Of a DNA stretch of 64,000 bases, positions 4,358 through 41,064 are shown in pieces. The position numbers and the translations under genes are program-made. Position 1 is the stretch's first letter. Every line of letters begins with the position of its first letter. Location of the stretch: positions 1,468-65,467 of the forward strand of contig JANNGS010000036.1 in NCBI GenBank assembly GCA_031403995.1. Direction: 5' to 3'. Origin of the DNA: Thermoanaerobaculia bacterium. Its GTDB lineage: Bacteria; Acidobacteriota; Thermoanaerobaculia; Multivoradales; JAGPDF01. Under the pieces are notes generated by a model. That model was given only the letters and a program-made list of their open reading frames with translations, had not been told where the DNA came from and ran no database searches.

Positions 4358-5230
4358 CTATTGCTGCGACTTCGCGCAGCGGAAGCCGAGGCTCGAGCTG
4401 CGGTCGGTGGGGGATTTCGGAATCCGGTTGTAGGTCCGGCCGTCGGAGAGCTCCCAGGAGTCCCAGGAGCCGCCGGCCACCAGACGCAGGTCGGGCTCTT
4501 CCTCGCTCGCCGAGGCGGTCCATTCGCTGACGTTGCCGGCCATGGCGAGGACGCCGTAGGGACTGCGGTCGCGGCTGTACCGGCTGTCGGTGACCGGCCA
4601 GGTCGGAATCTGCTTCGCGGCAGAGGTTTTCTCGTCGTGGCGGTCGGCGCCGAGGATGTTGGCGGTCGCCGGATCGAGGACGTTGCCCGTCGGGAAGGAG
4701 CGGCCGTCGGTGCCGCGGGCCGTCTTCTCCCACTCGATCGCGGTCGGCAGCCGGCCTCCCGACCAGCGGCAGAAGCTCGCCGCCTCGCTCCAGGCGACGA
4801 AGACCACCGGATTGTCGCGATGGCTGGCGAGGTAGGCGCGATCTTCCCAGTAGGAGGGGAGCTCTCGCGGTCCGCAGGCGCTGCCGCGGGGGCAGGCGGC
4901 GAGGAACTCCTCGTAGCGTCCGTTGGTGACCTCGGTGCGCTCGATCGAAAACGCCGGCACGTCGATCTCGGCCTGGTCGGCGCCGGAAGCGAAGAGCCCG
5001 GCCCGAACGGCGATCCAGGGAAGGTTCGACGCCGGCGGCTCGGGCGCCGGGCGAGCCTTCTCGGCCGGCTTCGACTCTGACTGGTTCTGCGGCCGGATCT
5101 CCGTCCCGGGGACCGCTTTTGGACGGTTCCAGGGCAACTGCTCGGGCGGGACGAAGCGGTAGACCGCGGTTCCCACCAGCCCGAGACCGATCAGGAAGAG
5201 GAGGAGCTTACCGAGCGGCGTCAACTTCAT
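4358..5230 (-). CDS. FGE-sulfatase (SUMF1/EgtB/PvdO-like) domain protein with N-terminal membrane anchor
   Basis: N-terminal TM segment (LLLFLIGLGLVGTAVY) and a Pro-rich linker. ERTEVTNGRYEEF, RLPTAIEWEKTARG, GNVSEWT, GGSW and LGFRC are formylglycine-generating-enzyme fold motifs. Confidence 0.8.
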   Translation of the reverse strand: MKLTPLGKLLLFLIGLGLVGTAVYRFVPPEQLPWNRPKAVPGTEIRPQNQSESKPAEKARPAPEPPASNLPWIAVRAGLFASGADQAEIDVPAFSIERTEVTNGRYEEFLAACPRGSACGPRELPSYWEDRAYLASHRDNPVVFVAWSEAASFCRWSGGRLPTAIEWEKTARGTDGRSFPTGNVLDPATANILGADRHDEKTSAAKQIPTWPVTDSRYSRDRSPYGVLAMAGNVSEWTASASEEEPDLRLVAGGSWDSWELSDGRTYNRIPKSPTDRSSSLGFRCAKSQQ

Positions 5231-5305
5231 CGTGGGTCTCCTGATTCTCCGGCAGTTGCGACGACAGCGACAACGAGGACGGCTTCCCTGGGGTCATGCG
5301 CGATG

Positions 5306-6729
<1,424 letters not shown>

Positions 6730-37219: not shown

Positions 37220-38520
<1,301 letters not shown>

Positions 38521-38530
<10 letters not shown>

Positions 38531-40203
38531 GGGGAAGAAGCCAACTCCTTCGAGTAAAGCCGCTTGGCCGTCTCGGAGAGCAAGGTTAGCTGGAATTCTG
38601 GCCCCTCTCGAAGGAGGTCGATGAGGTCCCTGGGAGACTTGGCACTTCGGGGTGGCCTTGAAGATCGAGTTTCCTTGAGAACAAGCTCATCACCCACCAA
38701 GTCGAGGACACGTAGCCGCTGCTTTAGGCGGCTCCCAGAATACTGAGATAGATCCAGCAGATAAACCTCGGAACGCTTCCCAGCTGCGTGCTTCGCCGAG
38801 AGACTCGAACTCACAATATGAAGCATTCGGAGGTCCGTTAGACCTTGAACGAGACTGTACTCGTAGCGGTTGATTTCTTTGTCGTGGAAATCGACCCCCA
38901 GGAAAGTGATGTGTTGAGACTCAAGTAGGAATGTACGCACGATTCCAAGTGCCGCGACCAACGCCTCTGATCTACCCTTCTGCGCCGCCGCGTCCTCTTC
39001 GAGCTCCTGCAGCTTCGTCTTCGCAGCCTGGCCGGCGGCATTGTTAACGTCTTGCACGCCCGCGGAACGGGCCTTGGGCCTTCTTCGCGCTACTTGGATT
39101 GCATCAGCACATAGCGTTAGGAAGTCCCTAGGTACTCCGCCAGAGGCGAGCACTAGGCGATCGATTGCCGGTGAGGAAAGAAAATCGCTTACTCGGTGCA
39201 TTCCGGCTTCAGTCGCGTATCCCTGAAGCACATCTCGCAGGAAGGACTTAGCCTTCTTCGGCTCTTCAAGCGTGACATCCAAGTCCACAAGTACCGCATC
39301 GTGACCGGTTTGAAGTCCGAGTGGCGGGTTCGGAGAGAACCATCGCATTTGATGTTTGATGCCAGCTGCCTTGATCCAGATTTGGTTGTCCCTACATATT
39401 CCGTGAAGAAGGTCCAGAAAACCGGGTACTTCGTCCACCGACAGGTAATGGAGGTCGTCTAGAAAGATGAAGATGGAGCGACCTGAATGGCTCGTAAAAT
39501 GCGCGAGCAGCTGCTGCAGGTCTCCGCCGAGAATGCGTACCTTCGTTGAGTCGGATGTGACGTAGAGGAGTTCGTCCACTCGCCTCAGACACTGCTGTAT
39601 TTCGCTATCCAAGAGCGATCTTTGGGAATTTTGCTTGAAATTTGCCAGAGCGATACGACAGATTCGCTGGGCCACAGATAGGAATGCCTTTGTCCTGCTG
39701 AGGCCCCGAATGGACTGCATGTTGAGCCAAACGGCAAGGTCGCCGCGTTCCTCAACTCGTCGCCTCGCTTCGAGCATGAGCGCCGTCTTTCCAACTCCGC
39801 GACGTCCGAAGATCAGCGTATTGCGCGGGGCGAGGGCAAGCTTGATGCGCTCTGCGACATCTGGGACGTATTGAATACTGGGTTGAGCTTCAGAAGCTCT
39901 GGAGCGTGCGAAAATGATCTCAATCAACCGAGTAACCTCTCCGGAGTTCACAGTGAGAGGCGACGATCGCACGTTGGACAAGCTGCCTGATTCAGCGAGC
40001 CGAACTACAACGAAGCCATTCTCAATGTGCGGGTCAATTTCCGAGGCAACTCGCTGCGCATGGTCTTCGCCCGAGCCCACCTCCACGATAACGATAGTCT
40101 CGCTAGGGAAGGCACGAACGTGAACGCCGCGGGGCTCGATTCCTCTTCTGCGGAATTCATCGAGAACGAAGTCGTGGAGCGAACTCTCTGACTGTTGTTT
40201 CAT
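38521..40203 (-). CDS. P-loop NTPase (~560 aa) with arginine-containing Walker A (GRRGVGKT) and DD-box Walker B (IFIFLDDLHYL); Arch_ATPase/Orc-Cdc6-like AAA+ candidate with an extra N-terminal ~110-aa domain
   Basis: ATG at 40203 with GAGGG 5 nt upstream, in an ATGA overlap with the stop of the upstream small gene. Its 3' end overlaps the convergent asnS 3' end by 10 bp. The family guess (PF01637-like) is from memory of the GxRRxGKT P-loop. Confidence 0.6.
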
Positions 40204-40718
40204 AAGCATCCCTCGGATCTGAGGAAACCCTTGCAAATTGGGATCAGCTCAGCTGACCAGGCGACGATTTCCCCTGCAGTCTCTCGAAAACTCGCCTCGG
40301 ACTTTGGGTACGGATCATAGTCGGCACGATTCCTTTCCAGCCGAGCATCTTTGAGCCTTCGAGCCCAAAGGTCGCGCGAGGGGAACGCGTCGGGAACAGC
40401 TCCTGGAAGGGACTCGTGTCGCTGGTTGTCGTCGCCCGCGAATGTGAAGAATGCTGCGGCCCTGAGGCAATGGTAGAGAGAGTAGTAGCCCCGACTAGTA
40501 GCTGAACGAAACTGTGGAGGTTGAGACTTCAGCAATGCCTTCGCTTGCCTCGAGAGGCGCGATGCAAATTCGAGGCGAGCAAGAGCAGCTTTGGTGCGCA
40601 GCACATCGGTGGAGACCCCGGATCTCGCGTGAAGGTCGCAACCTTCCTTCCAAAGTGCCAGTTCACTTTTCGTGACTTTCGAGACCCTCACCAGTCGGTC
40701 GATGGGCAATCGTGCCAT
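40200..40718 (-). CDS. Small alpha-helical protein (172 aa) upstream of and translationally coupled to the islet NTPase; possible HEPN-like or regulatory partner
   Basis: Sits in the islet with the same low-GC codon usage. Contains RGYYSLYHCLRAAAF and a C-terminal ERNRADYDPY segment, reminiscent of but not matching the HEPN Rx4-6H motif. Confidence 0.45.
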   Translation of the reverse strand: MARLPIDRLVRVSKVTKSELALWKEGCDLHARSGVSTDVLRTKAALARLEFASRLSRQAKALLKSQPPQFRSATSRGYYSLYHCLRAAAFFTFAGDDNQRHESLPGAVPDAFPSRDLWARRLKDARLERNRADYDPYPKSEASFRETAGEIVAWSAELIPICKGFLRSEGCL

Positions 40719-40731
40719 TTGAAGGAAAACT

Positions 40732-41064
40732 CTACACTGAACTGTTCTTCAGCCCCCGGCGCAGCAGGACGAGATTGCGCGCGTAGAGGAAGGGCAGGAA
40801 CGAGAACGAGAGCAGGATCGGTAGCTTGTCGATGTGCAGCGCGTAGACCAGCGATAGCGTGCTTCCCCAGAAAGAAAGGTGCCAGAAAATCGGCGGCACC
40901 AGGAGTTCCTTGCGCTTCTCCGAGTGCAGCCACTGGATGATGAAACGGCTGCTGAAGAGAGCGTTACCCAGCAGGCCGAAAGCCGTCCACCACCGTGAGT
41001 CGGTGTAGAGCCAGGGCAGGGCGTGGCCGAGAAGAGGTTGCAGGAATCCGGAGCTGTCATTCAT
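40732..41064 (-). CDS. Lipid-A-disaccharide synthase N-terminal domain (LAB_N) small membrane protein
   Basis: ATG at 41064. WWTAFGLLGNALFSSRFIIQWLHSEKRKELLVPPIFWHLSFWGS is typical of PF07578-like 3-TM proteins (from memory). Confidence 0.6.
   Translation of the reverse strand: MNDSSGFLQPLLGHALPWLYTDSRWWTAFGLLGNALFSSRFIIQWLHSEKRKELLVPPIFWHLSFWGSTLSLVYALHIDKLPILLSFSFLPFLYARNLVLLRRGLKNSSV

Follow-up and report, generated by a model that had tools for sequence, protein, structure and literature searches.

A foreign HEPN–ATPase gene pair beside asnS in a Thermoanaerobaculia bacterium: a candidate two-gene conflict module

Introduction

In a 64-kb stretch of Thermoanaerobaculia DNA (hereafter the window), two translationally coupled genes on the minus strand lie between asnS and a gene for a lipid-A-biosynthesis N-terminal domain (LAB_N). 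The original prediction regarded them as a low-GC islet encoding a small helical protein and a P-loop NTPase, and proposed a novel defence or abortive-infection module. Such a locus raises the question of whether the two genes are indeed foreign, whether they form a functional unit, and what that unit might do. The features on which our answer rests are collected in Table 1.

Table 1. Features of the islet and its borders (positions in the window; a dot marks a feature without strand)
Feature	Position	Strand	Basis or remark
Inserted foreign segment, ~2.2 kb	38536..40753	.	blastn breakpoints, low GC/GC3, empty sites
ORC/Cdc6-clade AAA+ ATPase, 560 aa, predicted sensor/switch	38521..40203	-	
Last four ATPase codons (S-P-Q-G) and TAG stop, host-derived (asnS 3′ end and next bases)	38521..38535	-	
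Winged-helix-like domain with the invariant DLR..H462 segment, aa 434-483	38755..38904	-	structure model
GGVPRD in lid domain	39124..39141	-	G355-G-V-P-R-D-F invariant
Walker B motif FIFLDD	39454..39471	-	F247, D249, D250 invariant
Walker A motif GRRGVGKT	39784..39807	-	G133-R-R-G, G138, K139, T140 invariant
ATPase N-terminal region, aa 1-105	39889..40203	-	
HEPN-domain protein of the AF0298/UPF0332 type (PF05168 branch), 172 aa, putative toxin or RNase effector	40200..40718	-	
Conserved HEPN motif RLERNRADYDPYP	40305..40343	-	invariance in family alignment; coordinates verified
GDDxxxH segment with H101, alternative catalytic-His position of AF0298/AbiV-type HEPN	40416..40436	-	family alignment
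Native LAB_N gene, outside islet	40732..41064	-	GC3 0.82; PF07578 match, E 9.5e-21

Results and discussion

Insertion of foreign DNA between asnS and the LAB_N gene

The open reading frame of the ATPase extends from 38521 to 40236 on the minus strand, and the 560 residues are counted from the ATG at 40203-40201. This ATG shares the bases ATGA with the TGA stop of the HEPN gene (40202-40200), and the ATPase stop (38521-38523) is located 10 nt within the convergent asnS (37220-38530), so that both the proposed coupling and the proposed 10-bp overlap agree with the coordinates. The LAB_N stop precedes the HEPN ATG by 13 nt, which makes read-through from LAB_N into the pair probable. No promoter- or terminator-like site was found by a scan, which is uninformative for Acidobacteriota. 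The genes flanking the islet (asnS, LAB_N and EamA) are conserved syntenic housekeeping genes.

Analysis of base composition supported a foreign origin of the pair, as had been predicted. The GC content is 0.551 in the ATPase gene and 0.568 in the HEPN gene, compared with a window mean of 0.678, and their GC3 values of 0.595 and 0.584 stand against 0.82-0.91 in mutL, rnc, asnS, LAB_N and EamA. Nine 500-bp windows (250-bp step) fell below a GC of 0.60; all of them start between 38501 and 40501, making the islet the sole such stretch of the 64 kb. The lowest 2.5-kb GC of the whole sequence was likewise found from 38501 (0.560 against a mean of 0.677, sd 0.026, about -4.6 sd). AGA and AGG account for 14/52 Arg codons in the ATPase gene and 7/20 in the HEPN gene, while each flanking gene has 0-2. 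The TTA Leu codon, also named as a foreign sign, proved a weak one, with a single TTA across both genes. Raw GC is still low through LAB_N, yet the GC3 of that gene is of host level, for which reason we regard it as native; its inclusion in the islet was rejected on this ground and because the same position is occupied in relatives.

To locate the borders, the region was compared by blastn with five relatives (loci L008, L009, L051, L013 and L011), all of which carry LAB_N. Homology ended at 38528-38535 and restarted at 40754-40763, which placed the left junction between 38531 and 38536 and the right one somewhere from about 40733 to 40753. Synteny and blastn together revealed empty sites in L008, L009 and L051. 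In the closest relatives (asnS 94-95% identical), asnS lies directly beside LAB_N at a spacing of about 35 bp, the arrangement that the original prediction had suggested looking for. Neither the HEPN nor the ATPase gene occurred in any of 80 related Thermoanaerobaculia/Acidobacteriota loci, which is the opposite of what conserved core genes would give.

Identity between L051 and the window runs through ...CCCTGAGGGGA up to 38535, and the last four ATPase codons and the stop are, judged from this alignment, products of the insertion junction. The C-terminal tail of LAB_N is unlike that of the relatives, and its last ~7 codons are probably junction products as well.

A search for direct and inverted repeats from 38300 to 41000 gave short, chance-level matches, none of them at the junctions. 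The 64-kb window holds no tRNA gene, no integrase or transposase was found, and synteny confines the insert to 2.2 kb with the two genes alone. The absence of an integrase or transposase had been foreseen, and it extends to tRNA genes and terminal repeats. Without an integrase, a transposase, convincing boundary repeats or a tRNA, the islet does not qualify as an integrative mobile element or genomic island. Since the closest relatives have an empty site and the 80 related loci lack both genes, the islet is a recent, precise insertion of foreign DNA that occurred without these hallmarks.

Obligate pairing of the HEPN and ATPase genes

The pair also occurs in many other bacteria. Homologues were inspected at metagenomic and viral loci, a locus being counted as informative if it had room for a HEPN gene upstream of the ATPase. 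The results showed that HEPN lies directly upstream of the ATPase at 47/47 informative loci; at 45 of these loci, the gap between the two genes is -3 to +31 nt. The same order is kept in Comamonas, Xanthomonas, Burkholderia and two MAGs, which represent five independent genome contexts, and a pair only 28% identical shows the same arrangement on the Paraburkholderia plasmid NZ_CP051517. The pairing is thus obligate, and the view of the two genes as a real module was borne out. Among the contexts examined, the conserved unit is exactly HEPN plus ATPase, with unrelated flanks.

The pair occurs mainly in beta- and gammaproteobacteria and in acidobacteria, its distribution is patchy and strain-specific, and its GC is below that of the flanks at 14/14 other loci. 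From the plasmid and phage collections the family is nearly absent, with one distant match in each, and one viral contig with the pair was found in IMG/VR. The HEPN gene is missing from the public gene calls for the present genome and two other loci and truncated in two more, so that annotation-based co-occurrence screens may under-count the pair.

The small partner carries a HEPN domain with an atypical motif

The faint HEPN-like character proposed for the small protein turned out to reflect a true HEPN domain. PF05168 was matched by 43/43 aligned family members at E <= 0.1 (best 1.3e-7), and the family profile retrieved 9xbd (E 1.5e-6), 9xbc and 2hsb (AF0298, E 1.7e-4) from the PDB. The window protein alone scored 16.6 bits, below the Pfam HEPN cut-off of 22, and had no match in NCBIfam.

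Within the conserved motif, R126, R129, N130, D133, Y134, D135, P136 and P138 are invariant and Y137 is nearly so. The motif reads R129-N-R-A-D-Y134-D135, with Tyr in place of the His of the canonical Rx4-6H; no His was found 5-7 residues past R126 or R129 in 43/43 sequences, and RNase activity is therefore not assured. A second conserved segment contains the invariant residues G95, D96, D97 and H101. H101 is aligned with the His of 2hsb ('GRDSKTH') and thereby corresponds to the alternative His that precedes the motif, between helices 2 and 3, in AF0298/AbiV-type HEPN domains, for which it has been proposed as the active site (PMC3710099).

PF05168-type domains can instead bind nucleotides or substrates, and HEPN-T domains, such as those of kanamycin nucleotidyltransferase and sacsin, were originally read as subunits that bind substrates (PMC3710099). 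The HEPN protein might accordingly be catalytically inactive and serve the ATPase as a subunit that binds a nucleotide or ligand, in which case the two would form a regulatory or nucleic-acid-handling complex, e.g., in stress DNA or RNA metabolism. The missing Rx4-6H His and the subthreshold Pfam score would suit this explanation, which we nevertheless judge distinctly improbable: R126, R129, N130, D133, Y134, D135, H101 and GDD are strictly invariant in a family of only 35-50% overall identity, which indicates that an active or ligand site of AF0298/AbiV type has been conserved. Furthermore, an IS element disrupts HEPN or ATPase at two loci, and the patchy, strain-specific distribution at lower GC than the flanks fits accessory conflict genes better than metabolism.

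The partner is an ATPase of the ORC/Cdc6 clade

The ATPase matched PF24389 (39.3 bits; cut-off 27) and AAA_16 (38.3 bits; cut-off 32.6), and a precomputed PF24389 match was present in all 120 of the homologues listed. At E <= 1e-30, the family, which has its own Pfam entry, comprises about 300 clusters on the 50% identity level. The Walker A and the DD-type Walker B motifs that had been read from the sequence are intact in the window protein, and no variation in Walker A, Walker B (FxFLDD) or GGVPRD was seen among 38 sequences. In GGVPRD, we take R359 to be a candidate sensor-2 Arg and the segment to be a GxP-like motif, by analogy with Orc1/Cdc6 and the STAND GxP.

No solved relative of the ATPase was found by sequence. 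In the structure model, the fold is closest to Orc1/Cdc6, with a AAA+ base, a lid, a C-terminal winged helix and a helical insert after strand 2, and the Foldseek alignments to Orc1/Cdc6 exceed 400 columns. The predicted Orc/Cdc6-like identity thus held, with weaker affinities to Arch_ATPase and STAND proteins. The suspected C-terminal winged helix was also recovered, residues 434-483 being modelled as helix-helix-strand-strand. At the other end, residues 1-105 form a small alpha-beta-beta-alpha-beta domain (aa 6-69), followed by a disordered linker and then a helix. This domain gave no enzyme-like match, and neither it nor the full ATPase matched a Pol-beta NTase; an effector role, one of two that had been considered for it, is hence unlikely, and the domain is taken as non-enzymatic, possibly serving in docking or nucleic-acid binding.

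The likeness to Orc1/Cdc6 invites the question of a role in replication. A chromosomal replication initiator was rejected, and the ATPase is taken as an accessory rather than a core gene, because it is absent from the 80 related loci, lies in a foreign insert and is always paired with HEPN. The ATPase could alternatively be the replication initiator or transposition helper (Orc1/Cdc6, IstB, MuB or TnsC-like) of a cryptic mobile element of which the islet is a remnant. We consider this very improbable, given that no transposase, integrase, terminal repeat, tRNA or origin-like repeat lies in or beside the 2.2-kb insert, that the conserved unit is always the same two genes amid unrelated flanks, and that in structure the ATPase matches transposition ATPases less well than Cdc6, a likeness that stems from the shared AAA+ clade.

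Genomic neighbourhoods and comparison with catalogued systems

The claim that no catalogued defence family fits the pair was upheld. Searches against PADLOC-DB 2.0.0 returned no significant match (best E-values ~0.007 over short stretches), and no anti-phage model of NCBIfam 20.0, those of the DefensePredictor DS families included, was matched above its cut-off. Subthreshold NCBIfam matches of the ATPase were ATPase_Sll1717 (37.6 bits; cut-off 75) and DS41_1 of the DefensePredictor system DS-41 (24 bits; cut-off 370), the latter limited to residues 123-161 around Walker A. PHROGs gave no meaningful match, and no account of the present pair was found in the literature on PF24389, ORC-CDC6-like and HEPN-ATPase combinations.

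Genes for SIR2, PIN and KTSC, or for AbiJ_NTD4, DUF4062 and SymE, stand beside some copies and a Cas1 gene beside one. Another copy is located at the end of a P2-like prophage next to a GajA-like (Gabija-type) ATPase. Many copies stand amid plain housekeeping genes, such as transketolase/PGK, radical SAM and hemA, as do the bulk of those covered by a descriptive survey of neighbours. A defence function is plausible, the pair being a candidate on the strength of gene context.

A conflict module as the preferred reading

Taken together, these results led us to propose, with a probability of roughly 0.6, that the islet is a self-contained, horizontally acquired two-gene conflict module, toxin-antitoxin- or abortive-infection-like, consisting of a HEPN effector and an NTPase switch. 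In such a module, the ATPase would bind the HEPN protein and hold it inactive, possibly via its small variable N-terminal domain. The winged helix and the helical insert of the AAA+ domain would recognise a cue of invader origin, for which foreign DNA or a replication intermediate is the most plausible candidate; ATP-dependent remodelling or oligomerisation of the ATPase would then release or juxtapose HEPN dimers, which would cut RNA and thereby arrest the cell. The foreign origin of the DNA, the obligate pairing, the domain identities and the intact ATPase motifs are established by the analyses above, whereas in this scheme the HEPN-ATPase interaction and DNA sensing by the ATPase are assumptions, and the RNase activity, the physical contact, the trigger and the anti-phage outcome are inferred. 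The prophage, Gabija-, SIR2-, PIN-, AbiJ- and Cas1-type contexts and the IMG/VR contig speak for the proposal; the lack of a PADLOC or NCBIfam anti-phage match, the missing Rx4-6H His, the many housekeeping surroundings and the near absence from plasmid and phage collections speak against it.

A narrower version and a rival deserve separate weighing. Tentatively, and with rather less confidence, the pair may represent a new type of toxin-antitoxin or abortive-infection system, in which an ORC/Cdc6-clade AAA+ switch stands where an AF0298/UPF0332-type HEPN RNase would usually have its adenylyltransferase (MNT) antitoxin. The switch would sense invader DNA through the winged helix and AAA+ insert and, by ATP-driven remodelling or oligomerisation via a small N-terminal docking domain, license the RNase. 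On this reading, the replication-initiator fold would have been turned to immune DNA sensing, with the HEPN effector on a separate protein. Somewhat less likely still is the rival, a purely selfish addiction module devoid of any anti-phage role and with HEPN as its toxin, in which the ATPase takes the place of MNT and neutralises HEPN by binding or ATP-dependent remodelling, and which persists because its loss kills the cell. The tight coupling of the dyad, the membership of its HEPN in the MNT-associated HEPN-T clade, the many insertion sites amid housekeeping genes devoid of defence context and the solitary position of the islet in the 64-kb window would all agree with addiction, and the same logic has been proposed for dyads of MAE_18760-HEPN and ParA/Soj ATPases (PMC3710099). 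However, with its 560 aa and three or more domains the ATPase far exceeds in size and complexity what a simple antitoxin would require, the winged helix and the ORC/Cdc6-type core point to ligand sensing, and several copies of the pair are found in the accessory region of a prophage or beside defence genes. Toxin-antitoxin and abortive-infection roles are not mutually exclusive.

If the conflict-module reading holds for defence or toxin-antitoxin function, the known HEPN-based immune systems would gain a compact two-gene family, and an ORC/Cdc6-type ATPase would be seen to be capable of filling the regulatory place of nucleotidyltransferases in HEPN-MNT modules. The window provides an unusually clean natural experiment, since the sequenced empty sites of near relatives around a 2.2-kb insertion fix the minimal functional unit.

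Likeness to known HEPN and ATPase systems

Among the closest parallels to the pair are HEPN-MNT systems (type VII HepT/MntA, and UPF0332-MNT such as AF0298 and its neighbour), which likewise consist of two genes with a small HEPN; the 2hsb and 9xbd matches of the family profile place the HEPN protein described here in the same MNT-associated HEPN-T clade (PF05168). The conserved motif of the present family holds the invariant Y134; in HepT, a Tyr beside the motif is the AMPylation site (PMC11586414; PMC13000451). In contrast, this motif of the present family is R-x4-Y plus the alternative His rather than RX4HXY, the partner is a large ORC/Cdc6-clade AAA+ ATPase rather than a minimal nucleotidyltransferase, and HEPN lies upstream, whereas the MntA gene precedes HepT in the pair of PMC13000451. 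Membership in type VII was rejected, as the HEPN gene has no adjoining MNT: its partner is the AAA+ ATPase, and the neighbours of the pair are asnS and LAB_N.

AbiV, a lactococcal abortive-infection HEPN RNase with an AF0298-like fold, is grouped with AF0298-type domains by the alternative His N-terminal to the motif (PMC3710099). Its RNase activity and defence role were shown experimentally, and AF0298 is among its closest structural neighbours (bioRxiv 2024.05.05.592566). No sequence match between AbiV and the pair was detected.

DUF499/BrxC-like ORC-Cdc6 ATPases (the Ava_2192 family, related to type-1 BREX) are fused to a HEPN of the Swt1/Abi2 family and belong to multi-gene operons with methylase, helicase and PglZ genes, whereas the present unit is a minimal one of two genes, with a separate HEPN-T-type protein and no BREX or restriction-modification genes. 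No PglZ was present in the contexts examined, and with no PglZ, methyltransferase or BrxB-like gene co-located at the islet, membership in BREX/DUF499 was rejected.

A restraining role of the NTPase would have precedents: in the MAE_18760-HEPN and ParA/Soj dyads and in PrrC/RloC (ABC-ATPase-HEPN fusions), the NTPase is proposed or shown to restrain the HEPN RNase until a signal is received (PMC3710099), although their ATPase classes and HEPN families differ from those described here. STAND/NLR-like defence ATPases (Avs, bNACHT) and RdrA of RADAR also rank among the closest known systems. Finally, in one copy of the pair the HEPN gene is split by an IS1595 element directly ahead of the catalytic motif, as would be expected for a toxic gene.

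Insertion of a foreign two-gene islet between asnS and LAB_N

The DNA of the islet is foreign. As the original prediction had claimed, its base composition departs from that of the flanks, both GC and GC3 being markedly lower: the islet genes have a GC of 0.55–0.57 and a GC3 of 0.58–0.60, and the GC3 of mutL, rnc, asnS, LAB_N and EamA is 0.82–0.91. All 500-bp windows with GC < 0.60 across the 64 kb fall within the pair, and the 2.5-kb window from 38501 is the global GC minimum, about 4.6 sd under the mean. The accompanying claim of unusual codons held for AGA/AGG, which make up 14/52 Arg codons in the ATPase gene and 7/20 in the HEPN gene (0–2 in each flanking gene), but not for TTA Leu, with one codon in both genes. 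Raw GC is low across LAB_N too, yet its GC3 is host-like; LAB_N was therefore rejected as foreign, and its low raw GC reflects amino-acid composition. In other copies, the GC of the pair (48% to 62%) was below that of the flanks in 14/14 loci tested (L003, from Comamonas, L006, L088, L090, L092–L095, L099, L112, L129, L132, L134 and L155; difference 0.01 to 0.16), so that in nearly every setting the module has the look of foreign DNA.

By a search for relatives of its asnS, the source genome is a member of the Thermoanaerobaculia (Acidobacteriota). The gene order mutL-rnc-asnS-(LAB_N)-EamA is kept in many relatives. At L008, L009 and L051, the closest three of the informative loci (asnS 94–95% identical), asnS adjoins LAB_N without the insert, the two stops lying ~35 bp apart, and neither islet protein is encoded in any of 80 related loci, so the two genes are not core genes of the relatives. 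Nucleotide homology with relatives stops at 38528-38535 and restarts at 40754-40763, which delimits an insert of ~2.2 kb carrying the two genes only. The islet is a recent, precise insertion, which also made the chimeric end of the ATPase gene and probably that of LAB_N. At 38521-38535, the final four ATPase codons and the stop are host sequence common to L051, and this host-derived 3′ end explains the 10-nt overlap with asnS; at 40732-40753, the C-terminal tail of LAB_N is remodelled (…RRGLKNSSV vs …RRGPAKVQEG in L051). There were no boundary repeats at the islet, no tRNA genes in the window and, in line with the reported lack of an integrase or transposase, no mobility genes with the islet.

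The asnS-LAB_N convergent junction (equivalent to window 38531-40753) differs among relatives. L013 (asnS 93% identical) carries a PEMT/ICMT-type methyltransferase gene there (L013:8176-8745, −), and L011 (asnS 85%) a GDSL-like hydrolase gene below the Pfam cut-off (L011:3532-4629, −); most more distant relatives are without LAB_N and have EamA directly after asnS. The site seems tolerant of gene gain and loss.

Features of the islet and of related loci (L-numbers, genomic or metagenomic loci)
Feature	Location	Strand	Remark
asnS	37220-38530	+	convergent with ATPase gene
ATPase gene, 560 aa	38521-40203	−	longer ORF; conserved start, ATG at 40203
HEPN gene, 172 aa	40200-40718	−	ORF
LAB_N, small gene	40732-41064	−	flanks islet on HEPN side
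HEPN genes uncalled or shortened	L001:1917-2432; L093:7483-7995; L094:7489-7992; L002/L005:5475-5987		
GajA/OLD-like AAA_15/AAA_21 ATPase and small partner, Burkholderia gladioli	L091:9871-11887	−	directly adjoins pair; candidate defence genes
SIR2, ATP-binding and KTSC cluster with PIN-domain gene, Paraburkholderia plasmid	L088:7590-12128	−	directly adjoins pair; candidate defence genes

Domain identities of the two proteins

Our analysis established the domain identities of both proteins, the conserved ATPase motifs and the active-site-type residues of the HEPN protein; the quoted motifs GRRGVGKT, FIFLDD and RNRADY were each found in the sequence. The small protein, whose RNRADY segment the original prediction called faintly HEPN-like, proved to be an AF0298/UPF0332-type HEPN domain. 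Pfam HEPN PF05168 is matched by 43/43 aligned sequences, and the family profile matches PDB 2hsb (AF0298) and 9xbd/9xbc (“HEPN domain-containing protein”), the latter carrying RNRSDYD, the same motif as the family. Homologues numbered 45 at E ≤ 0.001 (33–46% identity to the query among 42 aligned), several of them labelled “UPF0332 family” at source. The invariant residues are R71, Y78, Y79, R86, G95-D-D97, H101, R126, R129, N130, D133, Y134, D135, P136 and P138, and in the Rx4-6H motif a Tyr takes the place of the canonical His. The invariant H101 corresponds to the “second strongly conserved H” of AF0298 and AbiV, described as an alternative active site by Anantharaman et al. (PMC3710099), and AbiV, which has AF0298 among its closest structural neighbours, is an RNase by experiment (bioRxiv 2024.05.05.592566). 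RNase activity of the family is therefore plausible.

[quoted passage not shown] No solved structure related by sequence was found; the best Foldseek match of its AlphaFold2 model (pLDDT 83.7) was archaeal Orc1/Cdc6. In the model, a helical insert separates strands 2 and 3; there are also a lid and two long helices, and a winged-helix-like unit is predicted at 439-483, as had been suspected for the C-terminal region. The N-terminal ~105 residues, modelled separately, form a small alpha-beta-beta-alpha-beta domain followed by a linker and a helix. Across 38 sequences, mean column identity was 66%, and Walker A, Walker B (DD) and GGVPRD were invariant. Scoring of 8000 candidates yielded at least 751 homologues (E ≤ 0.001), the best 120 mostly ~50% identical to the window ATPase; an exhaustive profile search, with sequences clustered at 50% identity, gave 299 clusters at E ≤ 1e-30, rising to 1048 at E ≤ 1e-3. 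Named homologues, from Burkholderia, Paraburkholderia, Comamonas, Bordetella, Cupriavidus, Variovorax, Xanthomonas, Wenzhouxiangella and others, are annotated “ATP-binding protein” only.

An obligate, translationally coupled module

The two genes constitute an obligate, translationally coupled module that moves between genomes as such. In the islet, the ATPase ATG overlaps the TGA of the upstream HEPN gene, the ATGA coupling originally noted. The HEPN gene starts 13 nt past the LAB_N stop and a scan found no promoter-like site for the pair, so transcription probably occurs by read-through from LAB_N. Elsewhere, five independent genome contexts each have the HEPN gene directly upstream of the ATPase gene, and the arrangement is retained on the Paraburkholderia plasmid NZ_CP051517, where the pair is only 28% identical. 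Among 70 metagenomic or viral loci surveyed, 47 were informative (ATPase 5′ end plus ≥ 520 nt upstream), and all 47 carried the upstream HEPN gene, the distance between the two genes being −3 to +31 nt in 45 and 117 nt in one.

In the remaining locus, L131, the HEPN gene is split (L131:1891-2274 and 5826-5951) directly before the conserved RNxxDY motif by a ~3.5-kb insertion carrying an IS1595-family transposase (4876-5757), and the ATPase gene is intact. Such a split fits the inactivation of a toxic gene.

The HEPN gene is absent from public gene calls in the source genome and two other loci and is cut to 90 aa in two more, so screens for co-occurrence that rely on annotation would miss some copies of the pair. 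The exact 172-aa protein was not present in a collection of 15 billion proteins.

Comparison with known systems and proposed mechanism

That no annotated defence family matches the pair was borne out by profile searches: PADLOC 2.0.0 models gave no significant match for either protein, and NCBIfam gave none for the HEPN protein and only sub-threshold matches in the P-loop region of the ATPase (Sll1717 family; DefensePredictor DS-41). No paper dealing with PF24389 or with the pair came up in full-text literature searches. Control of a HEPN RNase by an NTPase is a well-known theme, exemplified by PrrC/RloC, MAE_18760-HEPN with ParA/Soj, HEPN-DUF499/BrxC-like ORC-Cdc6 fusions and STAND-HEPN (PMC3710099; PMC12839542; PMC8195603). 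What sets the pair apart is the combination: an MNT-clade (HEPN-T, AF0298-like) HEPN is a separate protein, and the usual place of the MNT in HEPN-MNT modules is filled by an ORC/Cdc6-clade ATPase. Two-gene candidates of such type are common; this one is nevertheless a clean, widespread and apparently undescribed module, whose minimal unit is clearly delimited.

We propose that the ATPase would keep the HEPN RNase inactive and sense an invader cue, probably DNA in view of its Orc1/Cdc6-like core and winged helix. ATP-driven remodelling or oligomerisation of the ATPase may then release active HEPN dimers or bring them together, and these would cut RNA and thereby stop growth. Less probable rival readings are a toxin-antitoxin module that is purely selfish, a regulatory complex without catalytic activity, and a leftover of the replication or transposition machinery of a mobile element.

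Genomic neighbourhoods

The B. gladioli copy lies at a P2-like prophage end adjoining a GajA-like ATPase, and the Paraburkholderia plasmid copy has SIR2, PIN and KTSC genes nearby. AbiJ_NTD4, DUF4062 and SymE neighbour the Xanthomonas copy, Cas1 a copy in a MAG and an rve integrase another; the pair was also found on one IMG/VR contig. Apart from GajA (3), GajB (2), DRT-type reverse transcriptases (2), DNA methylases (2) and integrases (6), the 148 neighbouring ORFs surveyed were ordinary metabolic genes. These neighbourhoods are suggestive of a conflict role, the survey being descriptive rather than a statistical test. The islet itself was seen correctly in the original prediction, and its interpretation as a defence module is supported as a candidate. 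The family is nearly absent from the plasmid and phage collections.

A distant ATPase relative occurs in Bradyrhizobium phage ppBdUSDA122-1 (L089, OP596612.1; 882-1838 and 3435-4040), at a prophage end between tRNA-Thr and an integrase. It is without the N-terminal domain and an upstream HEPN gene, and is split by an IS1380-family transposase.
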